Shown here: piece after piece, positions 17,363 through 55,360 of the stretch
Layout of the letters: the number at the start of each line of letters is the position of its first letter
Position numbering within the stretch: the stretch's first letter is position 1
DNA from: Gammaproteobacteria bacterium
GTDB taxonomy: Bacteria > Pseudomonadota > Gammaproteobacteria > Steroidobacterales > Foliamicaceae
Assembly (NCBI GenBank): GCA_963665145.1
Contig: OY762064.1
Span: 194,403 to 258,402 of the forward strand
Length of the DNA stretch: 64,000 nucleotides
Direction of reading: 5' to 3'
Program-made: the position numbers and the translations under genes
The notes under the pieces: model-generated
What the model saw: the letters and a program-made list of their open reading frames with translations, nothing else
Told to the model about the DNA's origin: nothing
Database searches by the model: none

Positions 17363-20362
17363 TCAGTCACCCTGCGTCATTCGAAGCTGCAGGTAGTAGT
17401 TTCGCCCGTACTCGATGCCCTGATGGGCGTCGGCAAAAAACCCGAAATACCGGTCCGCAAGCGGCGCGCGCTTGTCGAACATGTTGTTGACTCCGAATCT
17501 CAAACGCCAGTCGCGATCGTACATATCCCAGTTGTAGTCGAAGGTGCCATTCCAGGTCGTTACCGACGGAATCCAGTACTGGGTGCCGTCGTCGAGGGTC
17601 AGCGAATTCTGGTAGAAATCTCCCAGATGCCGACCCGATATCGATACCCGCAAGGGGTCACGGCGCCAGGAAAGGAACAGTGTTTGCCTGACCTTCTGGT
17701 TGCCGTCCTTATGCAGCAGGTCATCGAACCCGGAAACAGGAATGCTGGCGGGAATGACGCCGTCTTCCTTCGCCGCAAGCAATTCGGCCGCCGTGCCGCC
17801 GGGAACCTGGTCGAACTTGGTCAGGAATGAGGCGAGATAGGTCAGGCTGAAATCACCGGCAGGGGTTTCCAGGAAATAGCGAATACTTGCGTCCCAGCCC
17901 TTCAGTGTCCGTGTATCCAGGTTGGTGTACTTGTCGTCGATGTAGCGAATCAGGCCGGCTGGGCAGATTCCCGCAGCCTCATATATCGCCGCTTCGTCGG
18001 GTTCCAGACCCGCTTCGCGCACCACGGCCGGGTTTCCGACTGAGCCGCTGCAATTGCCCGCACCATTCTGCAGGCGCAGCAGCAGGTCCAGCACCGTGTG
18101 GTTCTCCTCGCCCAACAGCCCGATCGTGTCTTCCTTTTCGATGGACCACCAGTCCAGCGTGATCGTGAGCGTATCCAGGGGCTGAACGGCGATCCCGAAG
18201 GAATAGTTGTCGGATTCCTCGGGATCGAGCAGTTTGCTGCCCTGCGCAACGCGCTGGGTGCTGTTCCTGCAGTCCAGCGTGTCCTGCTCCGGGTCGCCGC
18301 CGTTATTGGCGGCGTAGAAGCAGGCGAAGTCGGTGCGGGTGTTCTGCCGCGCCACGATGACTTCGTTGATGGTGATCAGGTTGGGCGCCCGGAAGGCCTG
18401 CGACCAGGAGCCGCGCAGCAGCACGGTCGGCGCAATCTGCCAGCCTGCCGCAAATTTGCCCACGACCGAACTTCCCACGTCGGAGAAGTTCTCGTAACGG
18501 GCCGCCAACTGCAGGTCGATATTGTTCATCAGCGGCAATTGCAACTCGGTAAACACGGAAGTTACGTTGCGGCTGCCGGAGTTGTCCGGCGTGGGACTGG
18601 AATTGACCACGTCGGAAACGTAGGGATAGGTGTCGCCCTGAAAATCCGTGAAGACGTGTGTTCCATCGAGCCGGGGATCGCGGTCATCCTCGAAGGTCTC
18701 GCGGCGAAACTCCACACCGGCCACACCACCCGCGGGGCCCCAGGGCAGATTAAACAATTCCGGCGTGGAGACCTGGAAATCTCCCATTGCCAGTGTCGTT
18801 GCGCTGTTGCGGTAGACATCCACCAGGGCGCGCTCGATATTGCTGTCCACTCCGCCGCTGAAAGGGTTGTACGCCGCCGGAGTCGGGTCCGACAGGGCTT
18901 CCGCCATGAGCAGATTGGAGACCCGGTTGCGTGTCAGGTCGTCCTTCTCGGCCCGCGACCACACCGCCGCCGCTTCCCAGTCCCACTTGCCGGCCTGGCC
19001 GCGCAGACCCTGGAGCACTCGATAAACGTTGCCGTCGTTCTCAACGACACGGGGAAATTGGTGGTACCGGTAGTTGTCGATCTCCAACTCCAGTCCCTCG
19101 CATGGGACCTGGCTTGGCAGAACCGAATCGGGCAGGCGGTTGGGCGAACCGCACGGTCCGAACGGGTTGTAGTAATTGTCGGCGGCGACTCTCAGCTTGA
19201 CGGTGCTGAAAGAAGCCGAAGCATGCCGAAAGAGATGTGTGTCCGACATGTAATACAGCAGCTCCGAGAAGCTCTCCATGCCGTTCTCAAACTCATGGTT
19301 GACAAAGACGAAGATGTTGCCCCGCTTGAGGTCGGAAGAAAGATCGCGGGTTGCATTGAGGTTGCGGCGATACGTGCCCTGACCGTCTATGCCGCCGCAG
19401 GTGCCGTAACCCAGGTCCCATTGGCAGCGGGGGTCTCCTGCCGGATAGGTTTCGAATTCTCCGCTGCCGTCGGTGAGCACGTTGCGCAAACCGGTACTGC
19501 GGGCGCTGGAGCGAACGTCGTACTGGCCATACAGGGAGTTGGCGCTGTTGTTACGGAATCGCGTATCGCCGGCCCAGGGCGAGTCGGCCGGCACCCGCCG
19601 GCGGAAGTCGGCGTCGGCCCAGCGCTCGTCTTCGTGTGCGCTGATGCGATCACGAACGTAGTAGTTGGCCAGGACGCCGACATGGGTTCGCTCTCCATTG
19701 AAGAAATCGCCCCATTCCAGCGCAATGCGTTGCGTGTCCCGGCTCACGTGGTCGTACGCTCCGTAGCGCAAATAGACCCGCAAACGGTCGATGTCCTTTC
19801 TGACGACGTAATTGACCACACCGGCCACGGCGTCCGCGCCGTAAAGCGCCGATGCCCCGTCCTTCAGGATTTCAACCCGGTCCATGCCGTAAATTGGAAT
19901 CGTCTGCGTGTTTGCCGTGTTTACGGGGACAAAACTGCCGCCGACTTCCTCGGTCTGATAACTCGCGGCGTTCACGACCCGGCGGCCGTTGAACAGCACC
20001 AGTGTGTTCCCGGTACCCAGGCTGCGCAGGTTGAAGGCGCCGATGTCGCCGCGGGCGGAATTCACGCCGCCGCTGATGTTCTCGGCCTCGTTGAAAAAGT
20101 TCTGACCCTGCTCGGGCACGAATTGCAACAATTCATCGCCGGAATCCACGCCCATGGCTTCGATCTCTTCGGCGCCGATAACGGAAACCGGCAAGGCACC
20201 CGTAATGTTGGCGCCCTTGATGTGGCTGCCGGTAACGACGATTTCCTCCATTTCCTGCTCTTCGCCGTTACCTACTGCAGTGTCCTGGGCGAAGCCCGTG
20301 ACGCTGCCGGCGAGAAACAAGGAAGACGCCGACACTGCGGCCAAAGATCTGCATTTCAGCAT
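17363..20362 (-). CDS. TonB-dependent outer-membrane receptor
   Basis: Start at ATG 20362 gives the signal peptide 'MLKCRSLAAVSASSLFLAGSVTGFAQD'. Plug region 'EEIVVTGSHIKG...RVEILKDGASALYGADAVAGVVNYV'. About 1000 aa of beta-barrel-type sequence. Confidence 0.9.
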   Translation of the reverse strand: MLKCRSLAAVSASSLFLAGSVTGFAQDTAVGNGEEQEMEEIVVTGSHIKGANITGALPVSVIGAEEIEAMGVDSGDELLQFVPEQGQNFFNEAENISGGVNSARGDIGAFNLRSLGTGNTLVLFNGRRVVNAASYQTEEVGGSFVPVNTANTQTIPIYGMDRVEILKDGASALYGADAVAGVVNYVVRKDIDRLRVYLRYGAYDHVSRDTQRIALEWGDFFNGERTHVGVLANYYVRDRISAHEDERWADADFRRRVPADSPWAGDTRFRNNSANSLYGQYDVRSSARSTGLRNVLTDGSGEFETYPAGDPRCQWDLGYGTCGGIDGQGTYRRNLNATRDLSSDLKRGNIFVFVNHEFENGMESFSELLYYMSDTHLFRHASASFSTVKLRVAADNYYNPFGPCGSPNRLPDSVLPSQVPCEGLELEIDNYRYHQFPRVVENDGNVYRVLQGLRGQAGKWDWEAAAVWSRAEKDDLTRNRVSNLLMAEALSDPTPAAYNPFSGGVDSNIERALVDVYRNSATTLAMGDFQVSTPELFNLPWGPAGGVAGVEFRRETFEDDRDPRLDGTHVFTDFQGDTYPYVSDVVNSSPTPDNSGSRNVTSVFTELQLPLMNNIDLQLAARYENFSDVGSSVVGKFAAGWQIAPTVLLRGSWSQAFRAPNLITINEVIVARQNTRTDFACFYAANNGGDPEQDTLDCRNSTQRVAQGSKLLDPEESDNYSFGIAVQPLDTLTITLDWWSIEKEDTIGLLGEENHTVLDLLLRLQNGAGNCSGSVGNPAVVREAGLEPDEAAIYEAAGICPAGLIRYIDDKYTNLDTRTLKGWDASIRYFLETPAGDFSLTYLASFLTKFDQVPGGTAAELLAAKEDGVIPASIPVSGFDDLLHKDGNQKVRQTLFLSWRRDPLRVSISGRHLGDFYQNSLTLDDGTQYWIPSVTTWNGTFDYNWDMYDRDWRLRFGVNNMFDKRAPLADRYFGFFADAHQGIEYGRNYYLQLRMTQGD

Positions 20363-20420: not shown

Positions 20421-23060
20421 CTATTTGTCGGCCGGCGCCAGATCCGCAAATGCTGCTTGCAGTCCCAGTGACGCCTCGAGAAGTTCCTTGTTGGCACCGT
20501 CCAGCCACGCCTGGTCGCGCGCCAGGGATTCCCGGTGATCGCCAAGCATCCGGGCCACCTCCGTCGGTTGCGGCCCGCCCAGGCCCTTGCGTGCCGCAAG
20601 CATTGAGGCGGGATCCATCGCCCGGCGAACAGTATTGACCGGAACCGGCAGCGGTTTGCCCGTCACCTCCCGGTAGATTTCTCGAAACTCCTCGTCCGAC
20701 AGCGAGCGAGCGCGCCGCTGCTTAGCGCGCGCGTAGTCCGTAAGGGCCGAGGCGTATCCATGAGCGGTGCGAAACGGCAGCCAGGCCTCGCGGACCAGCA
20801 TGTCCGCAACTTCCGTCATGGTGGAAAAACCGCGCCGCAATTCTTCGAGCGCCCGTTCACGGTCCACGCGGAGCAGCCCGATCAGGCGAGCGTACCGACG
20901 GTACATCAGTTCACCTTCTTCAGACAGCTCGAGGATTGGAGTGGCTTCGCGGTAATCGTGCATCCCGGTATTGGTGTTGTGCGCCAGCAGCAGCTGGGTT
21001 TGCGCGCTGCCCAGCACAATGCTGGCCTGGCTCCGCACGCGGTCCAGGGGCCGTGGGTTGCGTTTCTGCGGCATGATCGTGCTGATGCCAACAGCGGACC
21101 GGTCCAGCAAAATCCACGGCCGGGGGTTGTGGTACTGAGTGTGCAGGTTCTCGACCAGCTGGCCGATCGGGACGGCCGAAAGCGCCAGAATGCCGGCAAG
21201 CTCCCTTCTCAGGTCCCCGGACGAAACCAGGTTGGCGTCGTAGCTGTTGTCTTCCGGCCCCGCGAAACCCAGGAGTTCCGCCAGGCGTGGCCGGTTCAAG
21301 GCGAAACCCGAGGTGCCGAGCGCCGCGGAGCCCAGCGGGCTCAGGTTCATGCGGGCGTAGCCCTCGCGATAGCGCTGGACGTCGCGCTCAAGATTGGCGG
21401 AGAACGCCAGCAGGTAGTGCCCCAGCGTGGTCGGCTGCGCCTGCACGCCATGGGTGTAGGCCGGGATCGGTGTGCCGGCCTCCTGTTCCGCGAGCTTCAG
21501 CAGCGCAGCGCGCGAACGCAGTGCGCCTGCCGCCAGCTCCAGCCATCGGTCGCGGATCAGCATGCGGCGAGTGGCGCCGTGGAGGTCCTGTCGCGAGCGC
21601 CCCAGGTGCAGGTCGCTGACACTCTCGCCCGCAAGCTCAATCAGGCGTTCTTCGAAGGGAAGGTAATTGGGTGTTCTCGCTGCGCCCTCGGCTTCCTGCT
21701 CGGCTTGCAGTTGAATGATCCCGCCCGCAATGGTTTCCGCCTGCCGGCGGTCAATCAGGCGTTCCTCCAGCAGCATCACCAATGAAGCCTTGTTGGCTTC
21801 GACGAGATAACAGAAGAAATCCGGGCATTGGGCGCCACGGCGGGCAGCCAGCGCCCCGTCGCCGCCACCCAGAACGGTCACCAGGGAGTCCGCAAGTACG
21901 CCGGCGGTAGCGGTGATTTCAGCCCGGTCCGTGTCGTCACCTGTTTCCACGGTGATGGAAGGCACCCCGAAGCGGCGATAGAAGTAATTCTTCGCGATGG
22001 CGGTTTCCTTCGAAGGGCGCGGCGCTCTTTCGAATTCGTATACCGAGCCGCTGGCCCTGGCCAGGCGCAGCCAGCGGGAGGCAAGAGCCGGTGGACGGGT
22101 CGCGTCCTTCAGCGTGGGAACATAGAAAACGTTGCGCCAGGTGCCATGAAAATCAAGCATCAGGGCTATTTCCCTGCCCTGCTCCTGCAGGCCGTCCACC
22201 AGGTCCCTTACCGCCCGGGTTTCCTTCTGCCTGAACGATCCCCAATCGCGATTGAGGTCGGTGCCGCCCAGGTTGTGCCGCCAATGACCCGCGGCGACTC
22301 CGTCGGGATTGAGGTTGGGTATGACCACGAGGCTGTGTTCGCGATAGAAGCTGCACTTGCCTGAGGCCGCGTCCGCGCAGGCCCTGGCGCGATCCTGCAA
22401 CAACCGTTCGGCAAAGGCGGTGAACATCAGCGCTCCGGGAACTTCGGGTGGATGCTGCCGGCCCAGCAGGAGCAGGTAGCGGGGAGCCTGCGGATCGGTC
22501 TGGGCGGCTTGTATCGAACGGCCGCCTTCGGTTTCTCCAATGCTGCGCCACTTGAGGTCGGGATAGCGATCAGCCATTCTTTTGCGCCACGTCTCGTAGA
22601 AGTCCAGCCCCAGGTTTTCCTGTGCGGACACGAACAGGCCGTCCGCCCCGGGTTGCAGCTCCATCGTGACCCGCCCGTCCTCGTGGGCGAGCCAGTTCCG
22701 TTCCGGCAGGCGAGCCCAATCACTGCCGTCGCTGCTGATCTTCGGCCAATAGCGGTGCCGGCTTGAGGTGTAGCGCAGGGTCACCACGATCGTGCCTTGT
22801 TCATCAGCCTTACTGGGACGAATATGGAACCCGTACCAGGGGCTTGCATTGATCGGGGGAGCGTCCTCGGGCTCTATGGTCAGAATTACGCCGCGCTCAT
22901 TGAATACACGGCAGGCATTCGCCCGCGCACCCTCAAAATCCACTCGAATTTCATAGAGGCCCGTGTCGCACAGCGGAGCGCCTTGCGGTTCCTGACCGTG
23001 CGCGACGGAGAATGCGGAAAAGGCTGCAGTGGCTGCGGCCAGTCTCAGAAGTCGATTCAT
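20421..23060 (-). CDS. exported bifunctional fusion: M14 zinc carboxypeptidase (N-terminal) + argininosuccinate-lyase-like fumarate-lyase-superfamily domain (C-terminal)
   Basis: Start at ATG 23060 overlaps the upstream stop (ATGA). Signal peptide 'MNRLLRLAAATAAFSAFSVAHGQ'. M14 motifs: 'GRQHPPE' (HxxE), 'NPDG', 'LDFHG', 'ITVETG'. ASL-type motifs: 'LGRSRQD', 'AYTHGVQAQPTT', 'ISTIMPQKRNP'. One uninterrupted 879-codon frame. Confidence 0.85.
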   Translation of the reverse strand: MNRLLRLAAATAAFSAFSVAHGQEPQGAPLCDTGLYEIRVDFEGARANACRVFNERGVILTIEPEDAPPINASPWYGFHIRPSKADEQGTIVVTLRYTSSRHRYWPKISSDGSDWARLPERNWLAHEDGRVTMELQPGADGLFVSAQENLGLDFYETWRKRMADRYPDLKWRSIGETEGGRSIQAAQTDPQAPRYLLLLGRQHPPEVPGALMFTAFAERLLQDRARACADAASGKCSFYREHSLVVIPNLNPDGVAAGHWRHNLGGTDLNRDWGSFRQKETRAVRDLVDGLQEQGREIALMLDFHGTWRNVFYVPTLKDATRPPALASRWLRLARASGSVYEFERAPRPSKETAIAKNYFYRRFGVPSITVETGDDTDRAEITATAGVLADSLVTVLGGGDGALAARRGAQCPDFFCYLVEANKASLVMLLEERLIDRRQAETIAGGIIQLQAEQEAEGAARTPNYLPFEERLIELAGESVSDLHLGRSRQDLHGATRRMLIRDRWLELAAGALRSRAALLKLAEQEAGTPIPAYTHGVQAQPTTLGHYLLAFSANLERDVQRYREGYARMNLSPLGSAALGTSGFALNRPRLAELLGFAGPEDNSYDANLVSSGDLRRELAGILALSAVPIGQLVENLHTQYHNPRPWILLDRSAVGISTIMPQKRNPRPLDRVRSQASIVLGSAQTQLLLAHNTNTGMHDYREATPILELSEEGELMYRRYARLIGLLRVDRERALEELRRGFSTMTEVADMLVREAWLPFRTAHGYASALTDYARAKQRRARSLSDEEFREIYREVTGKPLPVPVNTVRRAMDPASMLAARKGLGGPQPTEVARMLGDHRESLARDQAWLDGANKELLEASLGLQAAFADLAPADK

Positions 23061-25456
23061 GGTTTGAAACTCATTTCCATTTCGGTGTCGGCGGCAATTG
23101 CCCGGTCGGAGAACCACCAGTAGCCGATTTCGCCCGAAAGCCAGGTTGGAAGCTGGTCGTTGAGGTGCGGGTCGAACAGCCGCGAGCTGACACCGCCCGG
23201 AATCACCGCCATGACCTTGTCCTCGTCGCCCAGGTCCGCCACGAATCTCAATGAATCGATCACCCGGGGATTGAAGTTGCCCAGGCCCGGAAAGCGCGCG
23301 CGTCCCAGCGTCTCACCGGATCCGCGGCCGGGATAGTCACCGCCGCCCAACAGACGATCCGCCAACTCGCCGGGTACCCAGGGATTGTGGATCTTCAGGC
23401 GGCTCAGGTTTCCCCATTGCCAGGCTTGAGGATCCTCTCCCAACCGTAATGTCAGCACCAACCAGGCGCGGCGGGCCGCTGCGCGGATCATTTCGCCGCG
23501 GTCTTCGATCGCTTCGGTTCGCCGGTTGTCAAACCATTGCGACTTCCCGGCGAGCAACATCCGGTGCAGGCGCTCCTGCCAGTAATAGATGTCCGACGCG
23601 TATTGGCGAACCAGCTGACCGCCCAGCTCGTCCTGGAATACCTGTAGCACCAGGTCCTGCATGATGGCCTGGAACAGTGCCGCGCCGGCTTTGTCCGGTT
23701 CGTCCAGGTAGTTCCAGCCACGCAGGATATCGGCGGCGGCCCGGGTCTCGGGGTCGACCTCCAGGGCCTCTATGAACAATGGCGTGAGGCTGCGGGCCAT
23801 GGGGTTGAGCGTATCGACGATCGCCGCCCAATGGTCTTCGGCGGACAGCACATGCTCGCCGTCGAACAGTTCCTTCATGCGCCGATAACGCCAGGAAGCC
23901 GCCGTGTAGCTGGTCCAGTGGCCGCGAAAATCGCCACTGACCGTACGATGGTTCGCATTGCCCACCCAGCCGCGTTGAGGATTGAGAGAACCGGGTGCCT
24001 GCGCGAACGGCACGAAACCCTGCCAGTCGTCGATCGAATCCACGACCGGCACCGGCAATGAGCCGTCACCCCGGCGCCGCACCGGAACGTGGCCCGCCGT
24101 GAAATGCGCGATATTGCCCTTCGTGTCTCCCACGGTGTAATTAAAGGGGGCGTTGATTTCGCTGATGATCTCCCCGGCTTCCAGGGTGTCGCGCGCCAGC
24201 ATTACCCGCTCGATTCCTACCTGCGGGCCGATGTTCTCCGCTACGCTCCAGCGCAACGAATACACGCGGCCATCGTCGCCGGTGAGCCCATGGTCCGAAA
24301 TGACCGGCCCCCGGCGGGTGTACCGAATTGTCAAAGGCAGTTCCCGGTAACCTCCCGCCGCTCTCCGGTCCCGAACCCGGATGACTTCCTCTACTACCTG
24401 GTACGGAATCGATTCTTCGCCCTGAAGGTAATTCCCGGGCTTTTGCGGGTCGTCCCGTTCGATGAACAGGTCCGCGACATCCGAGTACGCGTTGGTTACG
24501 CCCCAGGCAACAAAGTTCGAGCGCCCTGCCCCCAATCCGGGCGTTCCGGTGCCCGCGGCCCCGACCGCCCGCCACTGGGGAGTGATCAGGCCAACGGGAT
24601 GCCAGATCCCGGGCAGGCGGCGCGCGTCAATGTGCGGGTCATTGGCCACGATGGGGGCGCCGCCGGAGGAACGCGGCCCGGACGTGGCCCAGCTGTTCGA
24701 GCCGTCTGCCGGATCAGGTAGCTGCGGAAAGGTCTCCGGCGCGCCCACCGGCATGGCATTTTCGGCCAGGCTGTAATCCGAGGCCCATTCGCTGCCATCG
24801 TCCGGGTTGACGGTAAGCATGGATATCTCCGCGGCCCGTTCGGAACCCAGGTGATCCACCAGTGCCTGGCTGAGCAGTTCCGTGCGCCAGTTGCCGGTGC
24901 TGTTGATGGCAAGGAACAGGTATTGCGTGGTCATGTCTTCAACGGTGAACGGCGCCGGAGGTTCGGGCGCAAGCCTGACCGCCAGGGGGAATTCTTCCGA
25001 TTGCGTTGCGATATAGGCGTTCACGCCCTGCAGGTACCACTCATGCAATTCCCGGCTCGGTGAGGCCATTTGCTCGGCCCACACCCTCCCCATGCGGCTC
25101 GTTCCGATGACGCGCATCAGGGTGTCGTTGCCGACGCCCGCCTGGCCTATCTGCTCGGCGAGCCTGCCATGAATCAGTTCACGCGTCAGCAGCATCTGCG
25201 AAAGGCGGTCCTGAGCGGTGACGAAGCCCTGAATGCGGATCACGTCGGCCAGCGACTCTGCATAGATGTAGGGTATTCCCTGGCGGTCCCGTTTTACCGT
25301 GACTTCGGCGTCCAGCATGCCGAGGACCATCGGATGTTCAATATCGCGGCCGCGGTCCGGGATATTGCTGCTCTGGAGCCAGGCAAGACCGATTGCCAAG
25401 GCCAGGGCGAACAGCACCACAAGAGCGGCCAGGGCCAGAAGGATTCTTCTCAGCAT
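23057..25456 (-). CDS. penicillin-acylase family (S45 Ntn-hydrolase) protein, copy 1
   Basis: Start at ATG 25456 with AGGAAG 6 nt upstream. N-terminal anchor 'MLRRILLALAALVVLFALALAIGLAW'. 'IPYIYAESLADVIRIQGFVTAQDRL'. The beta-subunit nucleophile context is 'DGSNSWATSG'. Confidence 0.88.
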   Translation of the reverse strand: MLRRILLALAALVVLFALALAIGLAWLQSSNIPDRGRDIEHPMVLGMLDAEVTVKRDRQGIPYIYAESLADVIRIQGFVTAQDRLSQMLLTRELIHGRLAEQIGQAGVGNDTLMRVIGTSRMGRVWAEQMASPSRELHEWYLQGVNAYIATQSEEFPLAVRLAPEPPAPFTVEDMTTQYLFLAINSTGNWRTELLSQALVDHLGSERAAEISMLTVNPDDGSEWASDYSLAENAMPVGAPETFPQLPDPADGSNSWATSGPRSSGGAPIVANDPHIDARRLPGIWHPVGLITPQWRAVGAAGTGTPGLGAGRSNFVAWGVTNAYSDVADLFIERDDPQKPGNYLQGEESIPYQVVEEVIRVRDRRAAGGYRELPLTIRYTRRGPVISDHGLTGDDGRVYSLRWSVAENIGPQVGIERVMLARDTLEAGEIISEINAPFNYTVGDTKGNIAHFTAGHVPVRRRGDGSLPVPVVDSIDDWQGFVPFAQAPGSLNPQRGWVGNANHRTVSGDFRGHWTSYTAASWRYRRMKELFDGEHVLSAEDHWAAIVDTLNPMARSLTPLFIEALEVDPETRAAADILRGWNYLDEPDKAGAALFQAIMQDLVLQVFQDELGGQLVRQYASDIYYWQERLHRMLLAGKSQWFDNRRTEAIEDRGEMIRAAARRAWLVLTLRLGEDPQAWQWGNLSRLKIHNPWVPGELADRLLGGGDYPGRGSGETLGRARFPGLGNFNPRVIDSLRFVADLGDEDKVMAVIPGGVSSRLFDPHLNDQLPTWLSGEIGYWWFSDRAIAADTEMEMSFKP

Positions 25457-25540: not shown

Positions 25541-27934
25541 TCAGGGTGCAAAGGTAAGCTCCTGCTCAGTATTGGAATTGATTGCTTCATCGGAGAACCA
25601 CCAGTAGTTGATTTCTCCTGACAGCCACATCGGCAGCTGGTCATTGAGATGCGGATCAAACAGCCGTCCGCTGACGCCCCCGGGAACGACAGCCATCACC
25701 TTGTCCGGATCGCCCAGGTCGGCCACAAACCGCAAGGAATCGATGGCGCTGGCGCCGAAATAGGGATTTCCGTAGGATCCCCACAGGGTTTCGGATGACC
25801 CGGTACGCGGGAACTCGCCGCCGCCAAGCAAGCGGTTGAGGAAGTCTCCCGGCACGGGTGCGGGGCTTGAGAACCGAGTGGAGCTGAGATCGCCCCAGCG
25901 CCAGTCTCTCGGATCCTTACCCAGGCGTTCCGACAGCTCCGACCAGGCGCCGCGGGCGGCCTCTCCTACCAGGTCGTCCAGGCTTTCGCGCTCCGGCGTC
26001 GAAATGTCATCGAACCAGTCCGACTCGCCGGCAACAAGCATTCTATGCACGCGTTCCTGCCAGAAAGATGGAGAACCTTCGTAACCATGCACGAACCCTC
26101 CCATTTCATCGGCGAAGATCGCATGGATCAATTTGCGGATCATTACCTGAAACAGGGCCGGCGCCGCCAGGTCCGCATCATCATAGTAGTTCCACTCACG
26201 CAGAATGGTTCCTGTAGCCTGCAATTCAGGGTCGCTCTCCAGTGAATCGACCAGGATGGGCGCAAGGGCCTGGGCAAGGGTATTCCGGGTGTCGATGATG
26301 GCCGCCCAATGATCTTCTGCAGTTAGCACCTGGTCATTGTCGAAGAGTTCCAGCATCCGCCGGTAACGCCAGGACGGGGCCGAGTAACTGCTCCAGACAC
26401 CGTCAAAATCGCCTCGCACGGTGCGGTGATTGGCGTTGCCCACCCAGCCGCGCGCCGGGTTCACCACCGAGGGCGCCTCCTCGAAAGGCACCCAACCCAA
26501 CCAGTTGTCCTGCGCGTCCTCGACCCGCAGGGGAATCGCTCCGTCGCCCAGGCGCCGAACGGGAATACGCCCGGACGTAAAGTGGGCGATGTTGCCCCGA
26601 GTATCGGCCACGTTGTAGTTCAGCGCCCCGACAATGTCACGGATCGCCTCGCCCGCCTCGAACACATCGCGGGACAGCATCAGGCGATCAACCCCGATCT
26701 GGCGCCCCAGGATCTCCGCCACGCTCCAACGCAAGGAAACCGTGCGTCCGCTGTGGTCCCTGAGCAGGAAGTCGGAGACCACAGGCCCTCGGCGCGTATG
26801 ACGAATCTCAAGTGGACGCTCACGATACCCTCCCGGAGCGTCCCGATCGCGTATCCGTATGGTTTCGTTGACAATCGTAAACGGCACGGAGCGTTCGCCT
26901 TCCAGATAATGCCCGTCGCGTTCGGGGTCTTCCTCTTCGATGAAAAGGTCCGAAATATCAGCCGCGGAGTTAGTGACTCCCCATGCGATATGACTGGATC
27001 TCCCGACTGCCAGTCCGGGCCAACCCACGCCTGCAACGCCCACGGCCCGCCAATCAGGCGTGATCAGCGCGACGGGATACCAGATGCCTGGCAGCCGCCG
27101 GGCATCCAGGTGCGGGTCGTTCGCCAGTATCGGCGCGCCTCGCGCAGACCGATCTCCGGACATGACCCAGCTGTTCGAGCCCCCGGCCGGTTTGGCGGGC
27201 CGGAGTGCGGCCTCTTCGGGAAACGGCCGCGGCCGGTCATGCGCAAATTCGTATTGCGACGCCCATTGGCTGCCGTCGTCCGGGTTATAACTCAAGAGCG
27301 AAATCTCCGAGGCCTTGGTCCGACCCAACCGGTCCACCAGTTCCTGGGCCAGCCATTCCGACCGCCAGTTTTCCGTCAGATCGTAGGCCTGAAGCAGATA
27401 ATGGCCGCAGATGTCCTCAAGGGTATAAGGCGCAGGCGAGTCTCCCATCAAGCGCACCAGAAGCGGAAATTCCGCCGGTTTCCTGGCCAGGTAGGCATTG
27501 ATACCTTCAAGGTACCATTCATGAAGTTCACGGCTGGGTGATTCCAGGTTGTCGGCGAAGCGCTTCGCCAGCCGGGTGATTTCCAGCACGCGAACCATCA
27601 CATCGGTGGACACCCCGATGGGCCCCAGTGTTTGGGCAAGCCTGCCGTTGGCTGCTTCGCGGGTGAGAAGCAACTGCGTGAGTCGGTCCTGCGCAGTCAG
27701 GTAGCCTTGAATGCGAATCGCGTCGGCCAATGTTTGCGCGTAGATGTAAGGAACGCCGTTGAGATCTCGCTTGACGGTAACCGGCGACTCCAGTACCGGC
27801 AGGGACATGACTTCGCCTGCTGACCCGCCACGCTGAGGAATATTACTGCTGCGGATCCAAAGGAAAGAAAAAGAGGATATCAGAACTATTAATGATATCA
27901 ATATAATAAGAGATATACTAAATTTTTTTATCAA
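25541..27934 (-). CDS. penicillin-acylase family (S45 Ntn-hydrolase) protein, copy 2
   Basis: Paralog of copy 1, roughly 55-60% identical by eye. 'VPYIYAQTLADAIRIQGYLTAQDRL' and 'GGSNSWVMSG'. I place the start at TTG 27934 (IKKFSISLIILISL...), by analogy with copy 1 and because it overlaps the upstream stop as TTGA. The track ORF starts at GTG 28000. Confidence 0.85.
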   Translation of the reverse strand: MIKKFSISLIILISLIVLISSFSFLWIRSSNIPQRGGSAGEVMSLPVLESPVTVKRDLNGVPYIYAQTLADAIRIQGYLTAQDRLTQLLLTREAANGRLAQTLGPIGVSTDVMVRVLEITRLAKRFADNLESPSRELHEWYLEGINAYLARKPAEFPLLVRLMGDSPAPYTLEDICGHYLLQAYDLTENWRSEWLAQELVDRLGRTKASEISLLSYNPDDGSQWASQYEFAHDRPRPFPEEAALRPAKPAGGSNSWVMSGDRSARGAPILANDPHLDARRLPGIWYPVALITPDWRAVGVAGVGWPGLAVGRSSHIAWGVTNSAADISDLFIEEEDPERDGHYLEGERSVPFTIVNETIRIRDRDAPGGYRERPLEIRHTRRGPVVSDFLLRDHSGRTVSLRWSVAEILGRQIGVDRLMLSRDVFEAGEAIRDIVGALNYNVADTRGNIAHFTSGRIPVRRLGDGAIPLRVEDAQDNWLGWVPFEEAPSVVNPARGWVGNANHRTVRGDFDGVWSSYSAPSWRYRRMLELFDNDQVLTAEDHWAAIIDTRNTLAQALAPILVDSLESDPELQATGTILREWNYYDDADLAAPALFQVMIRKLIHAIFADEMGGFVHGYEGSPSFWQERVHRMLVAGESDWFDDISTPERESLDDLVGEAARGAWSELSERLGKDPRDWRWGDLSSTRFSSPAPVPGDFLNRLLGGGEFPRTGSSETLWGSYGNPYFGASAIDSLRFVADLGDPDKVMAVVPGGVSGRLFDPHLNDQLPMWLSGEINYWWFSDEAINSNTEQELTFAP

Positions 27935-47601: not shown

Positions 47602-48339
47602 TCAGGCGGAACCGGCGCCCTCCTGCGCGTAGTGTCCGCCGGCGTGCATGTGCTGGAGATAGATTTTCTCCACGTCGGCGTGAGAAACCTCGTCGGTGCT
47701 CAGTTCACCCACCAAACGTCCCTCTCTCATGATTCCGATACGTGTCCCTGTTTCCTTGGCGCGAAAGAGGTCATGCGTGGCCATCAGGATTGCGGCACCA
47801 TCGGACTTGAGTTTCAGCAGCAATTCGGAGAACTCATTGCTGGCCTTGGGATCCAGTCCCGCAGTCGGCTCGTCAAGGAGAAGCGCCCTGGCCTGCTTGG
47901 CAAGGGCGATGGCCACGCCGACTTTCTGGCGCATACCCTTCGAATAGGTCTTGACGCGCCGACTTATCGCTTCGGGCTGCAGCCCGACCTGGTGCAGAAA
48001 CTCGCGATATTCCTCCTGGGAATAGTCGTGACCGCCCAGTTGCGCGAAATAACGCAGGTTTTCCAGTGCAGTCAGGTTTCCGTACAGCATGACCTGCTCG
48101 GGAATGTAGGCGAGCAGTTTCTTGCTCTCCAGCGGCTCTTCGGTCACGTCCAGGCCGCACACCGTGGCAGTGCCGCCGTCCGGCTCGATAAAGTTGAGGA
48201 AGAGGCTGATGGTGGTGGTCTTGCCGGCGCCGTTGGCGCCGAGAAGGCAGTAGATGTCGCCCCCTTCCACGGTCATATCCAGGCCCTTGAGGGCTTCGAT
48301 GTCGCCGTAGCTCTTGGTAAGTTTCGTAGCTTGCAGCAA
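47602..48339 (-). CDS. ABC transporter ATP-binding protein
   Basis: TTG start with GGGGGAG 8 nt upstream. Walker A 'GANGAGKTT', signature 'YSKGMRQK', Walker B 'LLLDEPTAGLD'. Confidence 0.9.
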   Translation of the reverse strand: MLQATKLTKSYGDIEALKGLDMTVEGGDIYCLLGANGAGKTTTISLFLNFIEPDGGTATVCGLDVTEEPLESKKLLAYIPEQVMLYGNLTALENLRYFAQLGGHDYSQEEYREFLHQVGLQPEAISRRVKTYSKGMRQKVGVAIALAKQARALLLDEPTAGLDPKASNEFSELLLKLKSDGAAILMATHDLFRAKETGTRIGIMREGRLVGELSTDEVSHADVEKIYLQHMHAGGHYAQEGAGSA

Positions 48340-48484
48340 AGCGCTATCTCCCCCACGCGCTCCCGATTATAGAGTGTGCGCGGGCAGCCGCGATACGTCG
48401 CAGTGATTGCTTGCCTGGGCTTTCAAATCAATTGCAAAGCGCCCTTAACGCAAGCGCCCTGGCGAGCTCTTTCCTGAGCATCAA

Positions 48485-50170
48485 CTAATCGTCGTTCAGG
48501 CGTTGATGTCTTTGGTATTCATAGAGTGAGGGGACCGATTCGAGCGGTTCGTTGAGCATTTCGACATACGGCGTTGGCCGGTAATCCAGTTTGAATTGCC
48601 GATTGCCGTGCAGACCGACTATTCGGGCCATCGGTCCTTCATCGAGGCCCTGCACCGTGACGACTTCATCTGCGTATGCGCCACCCGTAACGAGTACGCG
48701 TAGATTCCAGGTGGTATTGAACCCGCCATGACCGGGCTGCCAGTAGCCGGCGCCACTTCCGTCAAACACTAAAACGACCGGCCCGTCGTTGCTTCTCACT
48801 GCCTGCATGTGCAGGGTTACGTTGTCGAACAGGTTTTGATGATTCGCACCGGCATGCTGGTCGAGCGTCGGGTTGACGAGAACCTCCGCGTTCCTGAAAA
48901 CGCATTTCGTTGATTGGGTGTTGAAAGACAAGGAATGCAGAACCGGATTCATGACCGTAATGTTCTCGGCCAACACGTTATGAACGTTGCCCATGTGAAC
49001 GGCGTAGTGAGCGCGCCGGGCGCCATCGGTAATTACGTCCTTGAAAGTCAGGTTCGCGCTGTTGTAGCTCAGGATGCCGCTATCGGCGTTGGTAATGCGA
49101 ATGTTCCTTGCCCAGGAATCGAACGAGCTTGTGAAGTAAATGCCGTTGTAGCCGCGCTCCATGTGGTGGCCGAAGAACGGAGAATCGGGAAACTGGAGTG
49201 TGAGGTCTTCGATTCCAACGTGCTGCAGGCCATCCCACGCGGCAAGCTGTGCAGGAATCGTGTCATTCGCATCATGCAGCAGCGAGTCGGCCAGCTGCAC
49301 GTTGCGGCCGTCGACCGATAGCACCCGGGATGTCTGGCGAACCAGGGGGCGCCCGGGAAACGACCAATGATGAGAGCCCGCGCTTTCATATTCCGTTTCG
49401 TAGAGGGACTTGATGATGCCGGCGTCGGGTCCCGTGCGGTTCATCCACTGCAACTGAATGATGTCGCCGGCGTCAATATCGGCTGTCGAGGAAAGCACGA
49501 TCGTCCGGGCGCCTCTTTCGCCAGTCTCAATGTCCGCCAGTTTTTCATTCTCCGGGTCGTATTCAACCAGGTACGGCGCTGCGCGTACGCCCGGCTTCTG
49601 AATCCAGATGAATCCACCGCTCCATGAATACTCGGAGAAATAGTCATCGAGATTCCTGTCCGGCTCTACCTGGCGCTTGTCGAGCTCAACCAGGTACTGT
49701 CTGAGTTCATCCAGTGACGAACTTCTGTCGACCTGGTCCAAAGGTCGGGGGAAGTGGAGAAGGGTACCGCCCGAGCCCGAGCCTGCGCCCTGCAAGACAA
49801 AATCCGGTCGTTCTATTCTCAGTACTTCCGAGATTACATATCGTCCGACCGAAAACCGGACGATCACGGGGCCGGCTATGCCATTTGCATGTGATATCGC
49901 AGCCAGAACTGCTTTTGTATCGTCTATTCCGTCGTTGGCGGACGCACCGAAATCATCAACCCTGACCACGGTACCCGATGCTTCCGGTATCGCGGGCAGG
50001 CCATTCCCGTACCCCGCAAAAGAAAAATCCGGGAGGTAATTGTCCCGCACTATTGTCTCTAGGGACAATATTGTGGGAAGCTCGCCCTTCGATTGACCCA
50101 CAACCAGGATTGGCGAGCAGAAAAGCATAAATGCCATGCCAATCTGTAAAAATGTTTTCTTATTTTTCAT
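48485..50170 (-). CDS. secreted right-handed beta-helix protein (pectate-lyase-superfamily / glycoside-hydrolase-like)
   Basis: Start at ATG 50170 gives the signal peptide 'MKNKKTFLQIGMAFMLFCSPILVVGQS'. 'VVRVDDFGASANDGIDDTKAVLAAI' is the N-terminal motif of Pectate_lyase_3-type proteins. Repetitive beta-helix-like 'N.T..N' coils follow. Confidence 0.7.
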   Translation of the reverse strand: MKNKKTFLQIGMAFMLFCSPILVVGQSKGELPTILSLETIVRDNYLPDFSFAGYGNGLPAIPEASGTVVRVDDFGASANDGIDDTKAVLAAISHANGIAGPVIVRFSVGRYVISEVLRIERPDFVLQGAGSGSGGTLLHFPRPLDQVDRSSSLDELRQYLVELDKRQVEPDRNLDDYFSEYSWSGGFIWIQKPGVRAAPYLVEYDPENEKLADIETGERGARTIVLSSTADIDAGDIIQLQWMNRTGPDAGIIKSLYETEYESAGSHHWSFPGRPLVRQTSRVLSVDGRNVQLADSLLHDANDTIPAQLAAWDGLQHVGIEDLTLQFPDSPFFGHHMERGYNGIYFTSSFDSWARNIRITNADSGILSYNSANLTFKDVITDGARRAHYAVHMGNVHNVLAENITVMNPVLHSLSFNTQSTKCVFRNAEVLVNPTLDQHAGANHQNLFDNVTLHMQAVRSNDGPVVLVFDGSGAGYWQPGHGGFNTTWNLRVLVTGGAYADEVVTVQGLDEGPMARIVGLHGNRQFKLDYRPTPYVEMLNEPLESVPSLYEYQRHQRLNDD

Positions 50171-50297
50171 GTATTTATTATCGCTATATGGTCTGCAGAG
50201 GTTTCTCATGGTTGTTCCCGAACAATACTACCAAGACAAAATCCGGGTGGCAAATGTCCATCGCTTCCTGCGAAAAAAGGTGTGAAGGTGGCACCTA

Positions 50298-50325
50298 TTG
50301 ACACCGGTGGAACTTGGAGTATGCT
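50298..50325 (+). promoter_or_regulatory. candidate sigma70 promoter for the second TonB-dependent receptor
   Basis: TTGACA (50298-50303), a 16-nt spacer, then TATGCT (50320-50325), about 60 nt upstream of GTG 50387. The spacer contains the palindrome CACCGGTG (50302-50309). Confidence 0.4.
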
Positions 50326-50386
50326 AGTCTTCGGTCGAATCAGACCATCCGTTTTGGGGTGAGAGAACTTACCGAGGAACAATACA

Positions 50387-53305
50387 GTGAAATATCAACC
50401 TAGTATTGCTGCGCTCGCGCTAGCTGCGACGACGCTGGTCTTTTCATCCGCGACTATCGCGCAGGACGACGAAGCTCTGGAAGAGATCGTTGTTACGGGT
50501 ATCCGCGGATCTTTGGCTGCTGCCGTCGATCAAAAACGAGACTCGGACCAACTGGTCGAGGTCATTATTGCGGAGGATATCGGCAAGCTGCCCGATCAAA
50601 ACCTCGCGGAAGTCCTTGAAAATATTACCGGCATCCAGATTACCCGTAGGGCCGGTGTTGGCACCGGCGTTCAGATCCGCGGCACAAATTCAAACCGGGT
50701 GGAATTCAATGGTGTTTCCACCGCAAATTCGGGTTCCGGCCGTAGTGGAATCAATTTTGAAGATGTCAATCCGGCGATTATTTCAGCGGTCGAAGTGACC
50801 AAGTCACCGGATGCCAGGACCATCGAAGGCTCTGTCGGCGGCACGATTAACCTGAAGACGATACGCCCGCTTGATCTGCCGGCGACATTGGCCGCGCTCA
50901 GGGTTCAGTACGAAGACAGCAGCCTGAGCTCTGAGAGCATGACTCCAAGATTCTCCGGCGCATTTGGTGACTCATGGTCGACCGACGCGGGCGAAATCGG
51001 TTTTGTGATCAGTGGTAGCTATACCGAGCAGGAATCGGTGTCATTTCGTCCTCGTACCGACCGCGACAACCGCGTTTCGCCGGCGGGCGCGGTCGATCCA
51101 TCTGAATTTCTCGGTATCCAGTTCCTGGTTCAGGAGCAGGAAAATTACGACTACGAGACCGTCAATCTCGCCTCAACCTTCGAGTGGGCGCCGAGTGACA
51201 GCCTGAACTTTCATCTCGATGTGATTGTCAATGATCAGGAGCGAAGCCAGGACAGTTACAGGCTTCAGGCATCCGGCGTCAGCACGCTGAGAAACCTCAG
51301 TGTCCCAACAGCTTATGAAACGGTTGATTTCGGTGTCGGTCCCGGCAGGTTCCCGGCAGCGCTTCAGGGCACGCTCGAGCCCGACCTGGCCAACGATGAT
51401 GACGATCCCAACCTGCGTTTCTCAAGCGATACCGGTTCCCGTGTCACCGACAGTCAAGTCATTGCGCTTGGTGGTGATTGGAATGGTGAAAGATGGTCGG
51501 TAAGCGCCGAGTTTGCGACGACAGCGTCGGACACGTCCAACCCCAACCTGAGCACGACGCTGAACTTCATTAACCCGAACTGCCCTCTCGATGCGAGCAG
51601 CAACGATAACTGCGTGCCGTTCATCTATGATTTGTCCGGCGGCACGTTGGCGTGGGGCGTCAATTTCGATTCACCCTTTGCGCCGGCGCCGGCTGATCTG
51701 TTGGACCCGGCCAATGTTGTTCTGGACCAGGTGATTGTTGGTCGCAACACAACTGAAAACGAAGAAGATGCATTCCGCATGGACATCTCCTGGGACATGG
51801 ATTGGAGCGGCCTTACCACGCTAGACTTTGGCTTCCGCATCGGTGAGTCCTCAAGTCGATTCAACCGTGTTCAAGACCGGATTGGTGGTTTCAGCCGGAT
51901 GGTGGACAGCCCGAACGGTGTCTTGTTCTCACAGCTGCTGGTGCCGGGTCCCAGTAACTTTGATAAAGGCGACGGCAGATCGTTGTTCATTCGTGATTTC
52001 CTGCTCGTCGATCCGGATCGCGCCTTTTCCGACCCGGACGGAACGCTGGCGATTCTGCAAGAAGCGGTTATTGCACACGATACGGCCAGCCCGGATATCG
52101 CGAACCTTGTATCCGATCAGAATCAGTTCTATGACGTTGGTGAAGAGACCACCGCTTTGTATGCACAAGCGAACTTCGAGGCCGGTATTTTCCGCGGCAA
52201 CGTAGGCGTGCGCTATGTGGAGACTGAAGTCGATTCAGTAGCGTATGGCTTTGAGGATGAGGCAGGAAACAGATCGCTGGTGTCAACAAAGGGCAAGTAT
52301 GACTTCCTGCTGCCGCGATTGAATGTAGTCGCCGAGGCAACCGAAGACGTGCTTGTTCGTTTTGGCTATGGCTCGGACATCAGGCGTCCAGGTTTCAACA
52401 GGATCAGCACTGCATTTTCGGCTGACAATCAGGAAAACTCTGCTATTGACCAGGGTAACCCCAACCTCAAGCCTGAAGAAGTCGATTCGTTGGATTTCGC
52501 AGTCGAGTGGTACTTTGCCGAGTCTGCGCTGGTCAGCCTCGGTTACTTCACGAAGGATCGCACCGACATCATTGGGCAAGTCTTCGAGGGCGCACTGCTG
52601 GTTAACGATCCAACTTCTACCAGTGGCCTGGCCCGTGAAACAGATCCAAGTTGCCCGGGCGGTGGTATCTGGAACCCGACGGTCATACCGAATGTATTGG
52701 GCGACCCGAATGTCCTGGGATTGTGTGTTGACTACCAGACCTGGACCAATGACCCGACAACGACTACCCAGTCCGGTTTCGAGTTTGCCCTCCAATACGA
52801 CCTTTCCAGTTTCGAAGATCGTCTGGGTTGGGCGTCTGGTTTCGGTGTCATTTTCAACTACACCAACCAGGATTTCAGCGGTGGTTCAATCGTGGATTGC
52901 ACGTCGGGACGTGGTCGGCAGGTTCTCGGTCCGGATATCTGCATTCCTCGAGGACTGCTTGACTTCTCTGAAGATGCGTACAACATCACGCTCTACTACG
53001 AGAAGCACGGTCTGTCCGCAAGAGCGCGTTACACGTGGCGCGAATCGTTCCGCACACAGGACTTCGGTGGCGGCGCCAACACGAGCGGTAGCAGTACATT
53101 CAGCTTCCCGGTCCATTCACTCGACAGAGGTCAGCTGAATGCCAGCGTCAACTACTCGGTCAATGATCATCTCGATATCGGTCTTGAAGTCGTAAACCTT
53201 ACCGAAGAGCGTATTGATCAACATTGTGTCAGTAAGACCGGGCCGCTGTGTTTCGTTGGACTCCCCGACAGACGCATCGTTTTCGGTGGAATCTACCGCT
53301 TCTGA
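50387..53305 (+). CDS. TonB-dependent outer-membrane receptor (polysaccharide/oligosaccharide-type)
   Basis: GTG start with GAGGAA 7 nt upstream. Signal 'IAALALAATTLVFSSATIAQDD'. Plug 'EEIVVTGIRGS...DQNLAEVLENITGIQITR'. Canonical C-terminal 'FGGIYRF'. Confidence 0.9.
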   Translation: MKYQPSIAALALAATTLVFSSATIAQDDEALEEIVVTGIRGSLAAAVDQKRDSDQLVEVIIAEDIGKLPDQNLAEVLENITGIQITRRAGVGTGVQIRGTNSNRVEFNGVSTANSGSGRSGINFEDVNPAIISAVEVTKSPDARTIEGSVGGTINLKTIRPLDLPATLAALRVQYEDSSLSSESMTPRFSGAFGDSWSTDAGEIGFVISGSYTEQESVSFRPRTDRDNRVSPAGAVDPSEFLGIQFLVQEQENYDYETVNLASTFEWAPSDSLNFHLDVIVNDQERSQDSYRLQASGVSTLRNLSVPTAYETVDFGVGPGRFPAALQGTLEPDLANDDDDPNLRFSSDTGSRVTDSQVIALGGDWNGERWSVSAEFATTASDTSNPNLSTTLNFINPNCPLDASSNDNCVPFIYDLSGGTLAWGVNFDSPFAPAPADLLDPANVVLDQVIVGRNTTENEEDAFRMDISWDMDWSGLTTLDFGFRIGESSSRFNRVQDRIGGFSRMVDSPNGVLFSQLLVPGPSNFDKGDGRSLFIRDFLLVDPDRAFSDPDGTLAILQEAVIAHDTASPDIANLVSDQNQFYDVGEETTALYAQANFEAGIFRGNVGVRYVETEVDSVAYGFEDEAGNRSLVSTKGKYDFLLPRLNVVAEATEDVLVRFGYGSDIRRPGFNRISTAFSADNQENSAIDQGNPNLKPEEVDSLDFAVEWYFAESALVSLGYFTKDRTDIIGQVFEGALLVNDPTSTSGLARETDPSCPGGGIWNPTVIPNVLGDPNVLGLCVDYQTWTNDPTTTTQSGFEFALQYDLSSFEDRLGWASGFGVIFNYTNQDFSGGSIVDCTSGRGRQVLGPDICIPRGLLDFSEDAYNITLYYEKHGLSARARYTWRESFRTQDFGGGANTSGSSTFSFPVHSLDRGQLNASVNYSVNDHLDIGLEVVNLTEERIDQHCVSKTGPLCFVGLPDRRIVFGGIYRF

Positions 53306-53370
53306 CGAAAGGACATCGATGACAAGCTCTCACTTCGCAGGCAAGCTCCGGACCATTTCCAGGGTTTGCC

Positions 53371-54231: not shown

Positions 54232-54237
54232 TGGGGA

Positions 54238-55341: not shown

Positions 55342-55360
55342 ACAACAGGGGAGTCACAGC

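Follow-up and report, generated by a model that had tools for sequence, protein, structure and literature searches.

The 64-kb window analyzed here (64,000 nucleotides of contig OY762064.1, from a gammaproteobacterial genome assembly) carries a gene whose product joins an M14 zinc carboxypeptidase to a carbon-nitrogen lyase of the aspartase/fumarase superfamily. The gene occupies positions 20421..23060, and translation of both strands places its frame on the minus strand, where it runs uninterrupted for 879 codons from an ATG at 23060 to a stop codon at 20421-20423; the plus-strand translation of the same interval is riddled with stops. A first-pass annotation of this DNA had reported a single 879-codon frame at these coordinates, which translation confirms, though on the minus strand. 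The longest version of the open frame begins at a GTG at 23117. The ATG itself overlaps the stop codon of the upstream gene (ccATGAat), an arrangement that is a typical sign of translational coupling. Pfam profiles detect Peptidase_M14 (PF00246, E 4e-12) and AstE_AspA_cat (PF24827) in the N-terminal half and Lyase_1 (E 3e-25) and ASL_C2 (E 1e-10) in the C-terminal half, the latter two bearing out an earlier assignment of that half to the fumarate lyases. In the direction of transcription, the minus-strand genes are ordered aspartate carbamoyltransferase, two paralogous acylases, the fusion, and a 999-aa TonB-dependent receptor (TBDR).

The fusion gene is real and conserved and not an assembly artefact, because the identical 879-aa protein is called on both a 3.06-Mb contig and an independent 3.9-kb contig, and because more than 110 clusters of homologues (at 90% identity) agree in architecture and length. 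From 5.8 billion proteins searched, 120 homologues were listed, at 100% down to 41% identity, and 118 of them are full-length fusions of 851-960 aa that contain both domains. Of a library clustered at 50% identity, about nine clusters contained the full architecture as one continuous match. A contig scan with the full-length alignment (lyase-domain patterns) returned stand-alone lyases only, and no fusion, among the matches listed. The domain boundary falls at residues ~400-417 (CPDFFC, window ~21810-21860), inside the interval of ~21790-21880 where the first-pass annotation had put it. That annotation had also allowed that the architecture might prove to be both common and already characterized. 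Common it is, as the cluster counts show, but not characterized: the homologues, all from metagenome-assembled genomes, bear only the public name "lyase family protein [Gammaproteobacteria bacterium]."

The N-terminal half begins, after the signal peptide, with a β-sandwich pre-domain (residues ~29-150; 22611..22976, minus strand) that holds Cys31 and Cys50, followed by the M14 catalytic domain (residues ~151-400; 21861..22610, minus strand). Both cysteines are invariant. In an alignment of 63 homologues, so are the three zinc ligands, H203 and E206 (HPPE, residues 203-206; 22443-22454) and H305 (within DFHG, residues 303-306; 22143-22154), as well as the catalytic E372 (21945-21947; within ITVETG, residues 369-374) and, likewise in the M14 domain, R261, N270, and R271. 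R261, N270, R271, and E372 are the equivalents of carboxypeptidase A R127, N144, R145, and E270 (PMC3940198). From residue ~31 onward, the family profile matches the "cytosolic carboxypeptidase" (CCP) PaCCP, starting at its residue 10 (4a37, E 6e-20), and also matches 3l2n, and the AlphaFold2 model has β-strands throughout residues 36-145. An N-terminal β-sandwich of this kind has been described as specific to CCPs (PMC3940198). Profile, model, and invariant residues together identify this half as the bacterial CCP (M14D) type, a β-sandwich followed by an M14 domain.

The M14D proteins of known structure (PaCCP, 4A37; BcCCP, 4B6Z; SdCCP, 3L2N; BmCCP, 3K2K) share with the fusion the N-terminal β-sandwich and M14 domain, an HPxE…H zinc site, an NPDG motif, the equivalents of R127, N144, R145, and E270, and perhaps also indications of an acidic substrate. 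In contrast to the fusion, they have neither a signal peptide nor a C-terminal enzyme domain; the fusion, for its part, has conserved cysteine pairs and is predicted to be exported. The cytosolic location that is a CCP trait very probably does not extend to the fusion, whose predicted signal peptide is conserved across the family. The first-pass annotation had set the fusion against M14 carboxypeptidases as usually stand-alone enzymes, which is a poor contrast here, given that this M14 module is of a two-domain type and is also found fused to another enzyme (see below).

The lyase domain (residues 412-879; 20424..21827, minus strand), recognized by Pfam, NCBIfam, phmmer, and Foldseek, opens with the junction motif C412-P-D-F-F-C417 (21810..21827, minus strand), both cysteines of which are invariant. 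Its conserved blocks, with invariance again judged over the 63 homologues, comprise S489-R490-Q491-D492 (21585-21596; S489 and R490 invariant), T536-H537 within THGVQAQP (21432-21455; T536, H537, Q542, and P543 invariant), and S660 within ISTIMPQKRNPR (ISTIMPQKRNP, residues 659-669; 21054-21086; S660 and K666 invariant). Further key residues are R670 and G699-M-H-D-Y703-R704, of which G699, H701, Y703, and R704 are conserved family-wide. Every motif quoted in the first-pass annotation was located in the protein, including the lyase blocks that it had described as off consensus. The deviations exist, but those from G to I and from S to T are peculiar to the window's clade: most family members read SGSSIMPQKRNPR, with the canonical GSS, where this protein has ISTIMPQKRNP. 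The Q of SRQD is invariant throughout the family. The lyase N terminus, said earlier to be missing, is indeed absent, with alignments beginning at residue ~40 of argininosuccinate lyase (ASL) and ethylenediaminedisuccinate (EDDS) lyase chains; the fusion's domain has no counterpart of the first ~39 residues of EDDS lyase.

Although the best NCBIfam match of the lyase half is argH (TIGR00838), the score is 219.8 bits against a cut-off of 279.5. In phmmer searches of the PDB, the lyase half scores 212 bits with EDDS lyase and ~120 bits with genuine ASLs. The AlphaFold monomer model of the fusion (predicted local distance difference test score [pLDDT], 87.3; predicted template-modeling score [pTM], 0.80) likewise retrieves EDDS lyase with Foldseek (6g3e; E 1e-27; TM-score normalized to the target, 0.84), with ASLs next, and no single entry among the solved structures spans both halves. 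The Arabidopsis ASL segment YNRDFQEDK aligns to GM-HDYRE-A of the fusion, replacing the motif Y-N-K/R-D-x-Q-E-D-K, which we take, from work on δ2-crystallin, to comprise the residues that hold the arginine moiety. What the fusion does have in common with ASL and δ-crystallin is a subfamily fold, all three conserved regions, an ASL_C2 domain at the C terminus, and the T-H dyad. It differs from them in falling below the equivalog cut-off, in the missing N-terminal segment, and in the unconserved arginine-side motif, and, whereas ASL is cytoplasmic and biosynthetic, the fusion is predicted to be exported and is linked to a TBDR. By these measures the C-terminal half is an aspartase/fumarase-superfamily domain nearer to EDDS lyase than to ASL, and it is not an argininosuccinate lyase, in keeping with the earlier suggestion that it acts on something other than argininosuccinate.

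EDDS lyase of Chelativorans sp. BNC1 (6G3D-6G3I and 6RX8; PMC6973171), the best sequence and fold match (31-32% identity), converts N-substituted L-aspartates to fumarate and an amine. In that enzyme, S280 is the catalytic base and S111, R112, and S281 form the β-carboxylate pocket (PMC7586795). S280 maps to S660 of the fusion and S111, R112, and S281 map to S489, R490, and Ser/Thr661, and all of these positions are invariant in the family except for the Ser/Thr alternation at 661. N288 and Y320 (equivalent to Y703) of the amine pocket are kept as well, but D290 is replaced by an arginine, R670, that is conserved in at least 90% of the family. EDDS lyase is, moreover, a stand-alone protein of ~500 aa without an M14 domain and has Gln where the fusion keeps the ASL-type His537, while the SRQD and GMHDYR motifs are specific to the fusion family. 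The lyase domain should not be filed as an EDDS lyase, judging from the replaced D290 of the EDDS-specific amine pocket. Because the base and the β-carboxylate pocket are conserved, it very probably still eliminates fumarate from an N-substituted aspartate, with a substituent other than arginine or ethylenediamine, and the extra positive charge in the amine pocket suggests an anionic leaving group. Two other substrates were considered for the lyase. Ammonia-lyase activity on free aspartate is thought unlikely, the family conserving a large charged pocket (R670, H494, R498/R499, H701, and R704). Poly-γ-glutamate and peptidoglycan stem peptides were rejected because glutamate has no carboxylate-activated Cβ-H, and the chemistry of the superfamily is therefore inapplicable to it.

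The protein is very probably exported. Its first 22 residues (MNRLLRLAAATAAFSAFSVAHG/QE; 22995..23060, minus strand) match the Sec-type signal quoted by the first-pass annotation, and inspection resolves them into MNRLLR, LAAATAAFSAFSV, and AHG/Q; the segment is helical with low pLDDT in the AlphaFold2 model. It is not a lipoprotein signal, because it has no cysteine. Essentially all homologues have a comparable N terminus, in which a basic n-region leads into a hydrophobic stretch and then into an AxA-like site that lies a few residues short of the invariant Cys31. Three cysteine pairs (31/50, 228/236, and 412/417) are invariant or near-invariant, the pattern that would be expected of disulfide-bonded extracytoplasmic proteins. 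In addition, stand-alone relatives of the lyase half (loci L003, L004, L005, L008, L009, L010, and L015) have signal peptides of their own directly before the lyase domain, as in the N terminus MKSLLLLLGMTIPSWVQG/AEPCEDFYC… of L003, whereas more distant, cytoplasmic-looking relatives from Betaproteobacteria and Paenibacillus have none. The fusion's neighbors in the operon are extracytoplasmic as well, the receptor by its signal peptide and both acylases by hydrophobic anchors at their N termini. From these features we infer a periplasmic location. Three "argininosuccinate lyases" of Achromobacter xylosoxidans, which are predicted Tat substrates, have been found in the periplasmic fraction (PMC11533796). 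These resemble the fusion in having export signals, a likeness of annotation and location only, and differ from it in their predicted use of Tat rather than Sec and in not being fused to M14. Exported members of the ASL subfamily have therefore already been seen, although never studied.

The 999-aa TBDR gene (17363..20362, minus strand), whose product has a signal peptide and Pfam Plug and β-barrel domains, begins 58 nt downstream of the fusion. This receptor and the two upstream acylases, which form the decisive context of the gene, had gone unmentioned in the first-pass annotation of the fusion. A co-oriented, orthologous receptor of ~1000 residues directly follows the fusion in 11 of the 12 loci with enough flanking sequence (the window, L084, L085, L087, L088, L090, L097, and L167-L170). 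These receptors are 55-85% identical to one another, with orthologues at 55-66% identity after the fusion or the stand-alone lyase of other loci, and are more conserved than the fusion itself; the receptor is the only conserved partner gene of the fusion. The orthologous receptor (57% identity) also occurs in L003 (9950-18197), after a stand-alone exported lyase that is 54% identical to the lyase half and before two tandem γ-glutamyltranspeptidases, forming a third variant of the receptor-centered module. The neighborhoods of the orphan exported lyases of L008 and L010 were uninformative.

Upstream of the fusion, acylase 2 (23057..25456, minus strand), the gene whose stop codon overlaps the fusion's start, encodes a 799-aa N-terminal nucleophile (Ntn) hydrolase of the penicillin amidase family (PF01804, E 7e-163; PDB 7eby) with an N-terminal membrane or signal anchor. 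Acylase 1 (25541..27934, minus strand) is 58% identical to it. The most plausible start of acylase 1 appears to be a TTG at 27934, which overlaps the stop codon (TGA, 27933-27931, minus strand) of the pyrB-like aspartate carbamoyltransferase gene as TTGA. The first ~25 codons from this start (27860-27934), which encode the membrane anchor, are strikingly AT-rich for a genome of 62% GC, and the public gene call starts 126 nt further in, omitting the anchor. The nearest match of both acylases is D-succinylase (7EBY), which acts on N-succinyl-D-amino acids, and not PvdQ or penicillin G acylase. Among the loci compared, such acylases were found only in the window's own clade, and the syntenic relatives have just one, without acylase 1. 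In two other fusion loci, a GMC-family oxidoreductase gene lies directly upstream of the fusion (L083, 7047-8654; L085, 8350-9954; the copies are 70% identical), and L084 has a three-subunit molybdenum hydroxylase of the xanthine dehydrogenase family in its place. These may be accessory oxidoreductases for an amine or amide product. Inspection of the sequences upstream of the fusion genes showed no conserved motif resembling an operator, and an Rfam scan of the whole window gave no match. Elsewhere in the window, the region 48000-56200 has a GC content of 53-57% (versus ~62%) and encodes a pectate lyase-like protein, a second TBDR (972 aa), a LacI-family regulator, and a KduI/IolB-family protein; it looks like a utilization island for uronate or pectin-type sugar acids and was possibly acquired horizontally.

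Scanning metagenomes with the M14 half yielded five fusions and 74 M14 genes without a lyase (36-43% identity). Of the lyase-less loci, 34 span at least 9 kb; 16 of these have a receptor with 45% or more identity to that of the window, and nine more have one at 30-45% identity. A DadA-like D-amino-acid dehydrogenase occurs in 20 of these 34 loci, a LysR regulator in 21, and a secreted protein of the PGA_cap family, which includes the peptide C-terminal epimerase MslH, in 16. A recurrent arrangement in marine loci (L104, L107, L130, L141, L163, and others) sets [DUF4886][TBDR][PGA_cap] back to back with a divergent [LysR][DadA-like][M14][cytochrome c / NhaC / D-aminoacylase]. The PGA_cap protein matches MslH, an epimerase of lasso-peptide C termini, weakly, which hints at the processing of peptides with C-terminal D-residues. 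In 17 of the 34 long loci, a D-aminoacylase gene immediately follows the M14 gene, and counted over all 74 lyase-less loci, the D-aminoacylase follows the M14 gene or is fused to it in 31. The place of the lyase is thus taken elsewhere by an N-acyl-amino-acid hydrolase.

The M14D-D-aminoacylase (Amidohydro_3) fusions (889-890 aa; L089, 757-3429; L143, 9938-12607; proteins P0179 and P0180) carry the hydrolase C-terminal to the M14 module, and their loci also encode the orthologous receptor, a regulator of the LysR type, and a DadA-like dehydrogenase. The literature searched contained no description of this architecture. The best PDB matches of the D-aminoacylase domains are the D-aminoacylases 1RJP and 1M7J (E 4e-63) and the N-acyl-D-glutamate deacylase 3GIP. 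These marine metagenomic pairs and fusions share with the window's system an M14 module of 37-44% identity, an orthologous TBDR, and a second enzyme, C-terminal to M14, that splits an amide or amine bond, but there the second enzyme belongs to the Amidohydro_3 hydrolases, with 1M7J/1RJP and 3GIP as its nearest structures, and is not a lyase. Their loci add DadA-like dehydrogenase, LysR, and PGA_cap genes, which the lyase-fusion loci do not have; the absence of a D-amino-acid dehydrogenase is what one would predict for a lyase that destroys the amino acid directly. For the M14-only and M14-D-aminoacylase loci, poly-γ-glutamate or peptidoglycan stem peptides are plausible substrates. N-Acyl-D-amino-acid derivatives have been suggested as the cargo of a marine TonB-dependent transporter adjoining a D-aminoacylase (Tang et al. 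2012; PMC3400609), a system that is likened here by description only.

Three syntenic relatives (L171-L173; 74-79% nucleotide identity, with the same flanking genes) reveal how cleanly the lyase can be removed. Their M14 gene ends in …GGGNG and the receptor follows 32 nt later, with two segments absent, window 21855-20376 (the lyase domain) and 27890-25456 (acylase 1), so that the indel boundary, at window 21856, falls exactly at the domain junction. The absence is a secondary loss, because the M14 protein of these loci clusters at 90% identity with full-length fusions. As far as these comparisons go, the lyase is a detachable module and the M14-receptor pair works without it. In L171 (7244-10231) and L172 (5841-8828), the receptor after the M14-only gene is called in two pieces (792 and 185 aa), while that of L173 is intact over 940 aa and runs to the contig end. 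The split receptors may reflect a system decaying in that lineage or an assembly error.

We propose that the fusion protein is a Sec-exported, periplasmic, bifunctional enzyme that works with the downstream receptor on an imported acidic, N-acylated, peptide-like substrate, the M14 domain acting before the lyase; we judge this reading to stand at an even chance. The receptor would bring across the outer membrane a small acidic peptide-like compound with a C-terminal or penultimate aspartate, probably N-acylated and possibly containing D-amino acids. In the window's clade, the two membrane-anchored D-succinylase-like Ntn acylases may take off the acyl cap, and the M14D domain would then hydrolyze off the C-terminal residue. 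The lyase domain, presumed to be a tetramer like its relatives, would use Ser660 as the base that abstracts the Cβ proton of the exposed N-substituted aspartate and would eliminate the nitrogen substituent, giving fumarate and an amide or amine with no need for a cofactor or ATP. Such a step would be of the same kind as the cleavage of succinylaminoimidazole carboxamide ribotide (SAICAR) and of EDDS, which is established chemistry of the superfamily. Across the alignment, both active sites are under selection (H203, E206, H305, E372, R261, N270, R271, S489, R490, H537, S660, and K666). Which domain acts first, and on what kind of substrate, we infer by analogy with the sister loci, in which a D-aminoacylase, a splitter of N-acyl amino acids, sits at the position of the lyase and so lends indirect support to the M14-first order that the first-pass annotation had put forward.

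Several observations weigh against this proposal. L171-L173 lost exactly the lyase domain and kept M14 and the TBDR; the two activities are thus separable, and the lyase may serve a side branch instead of a second step that is always required. At L083, the fusion has no TBDR beside it. The assignment of the S1′ residue of the M14 domain, where a basic or polar side chain would imply an acidic C-terminal residue in the substrate, is ambiguous, with the BmCCP lysine aligning to N358 next to K357 in a stretch where the alignment is weak. Aspartase/fumarase enzymes act on L-aspartate derivatives, and what the sister loci suggest about D-amino acids may not apply to the lyase. BcCCP, one of the bacterial M14D enzymes, was little active on a test glutamate substrate (PMC3940198). 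Both the substrate assignment and the family-wide function offered here are accordingly to be read as predictions from sequence and gene context.

The separability of the domains also suits an alternative in which they act independently on different members of the receptor-imported pool (one, for example, on peptide-linked acidic residues and the other on amine-linked succino compounds), the fusion providing only for co-export and stoichiometry and not for a sequential pathway. We consider this unlikely, but a serious contender: close syntenic relatives with M14 and the TBDR lack the lyase altogether, L003 pairs a stand-alone exported lyase with the same TBDR and no M14, and exported lyases also occur as orphans. 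Set against this are the retention of the fusion and its junction motif over ~9 clusters at 50% identity and the parallel adjacency and fusion of M14 with D-aminoacylase, which suggests a coupled second step. Metallophore piracy seems a good deal less probable. Here the receptor would import a metal-aminopolycarboxylate complex (EDDS- or aspergillomarasmine-like), and the periplasmic lyase would destroy the ligand, a chelator built from N-substituted aspartates, to free the metal, much as periplasmic esterases do for enterobactin. The closest characterized relative is indeed EDDS lyase, whose substrate is a natural zincophore, and the coupling to a TBDR is strong; the PvdQ-family-like acylases of the operon point weakly the same way. 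Yet the receptor, which is of the ~1000-aa type, scores far below every siderophore-receptor cut-off, the conserved neighbors in the loci compared include neither a metal ABC importer nor a Fur/Zur-type regulator nor any other metal gene, the sister loci hold catabolic genes instead (DadA, LysR, D-aminoacylase, and DASS/NhaC transporters), and D290 of EDDS lyase has given way to the conserved arginine.

That a catalytically inactive lyase domain provides the M14 domain with a tetramerization scaffold strikes us as very improbable. Aspartase/fumarase proteins have been recruited for structural roles, as in δ1-crystallin, and the fusion has no counterpart of the first ~25-40 residues of ASL and EDDS lyase; against this, the catalytic Ser and Lys and the carboxylate-binding residues are invariant, the family pocket motif (GMHDYR, R670) is conserved, and stand-alone exported lyases exist. 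Finally, two further readings are effectively excluded, an ordinary cytoplasmic ASL of arginine biosynthesis that carries an extra domain and a false union of two genes through an assembly or frameshift error. The former could appeal to argH as the best NCBIfam match and to the aspartate carbamoyltransferase gene upstream, but it is contradicted by the 219.8-bit score (cut-off, 279.5), by the replacement of YN(R/K)DxQEDK with GM-HDYRE, and by the signal peptide, cysteine pairs, and extracytoplasmic gene context, while the recovery of the same 879-aa product in independent assemblies and of more than 110 clusters speaks against the latter.

Both domain families are already known, as is the idea of receptor-coupled periplasmic degradative enzymes. 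What is new is the combination: an exported ASL/EDDS-lyase-like clade, its fusion to M14D, and its tight coupling to one receptor orthologue. We found no description of a combined M14, lyase, and TBDR system in the literature searched. For the bacterial M14D carboxypeptidases, whose structures have been solved since about 2010, we know of no established substrate. The linkage described here, which takes in one conserved receptor, a second step by D-aminoacylase or lyase, a D-amino-acid dehydrogenase, and D-succinylase-like acylases, narrows the search to acidic, N-acylated, possibly D-amino-acid-bearing compounds and makes the substrate question testable on a modest set of compounds. Relatives of EDDS lyase are prized as biocatalysts that make N-substituted aspartates, and a family with a basic rather than an acidic amine pocket could accept new, anionic amine partners.

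A bolder proposition, which we regard as doubtful, is that the protein is the founding member of a class of periplasmic C-N lyases with a dedicated TonB-dependent importer, which would use β-elimination to open non-hydrolysable N-(1,2-dicarboxyethyl) or N-acyl-aspartate linkages and release fumarate outside the cytoplasm. The candidate substrates of such a class would be natural aminopolycarboxylates or D-amino-acid peptides of marine organic matter that end in aspartate. Textbooks place the enzymes of the aspartase/fumarase superfamily in the cytoplasm, and an exported, importer-wired clade would widen where, and on what, their chemistry is used. If true, this would give marine and sponge-associated Gammaproteobacteria an unrecognized route to "refractory" acidic organic nitrogen, or a means of stripping metals from aminopolycarboxylate chelators.

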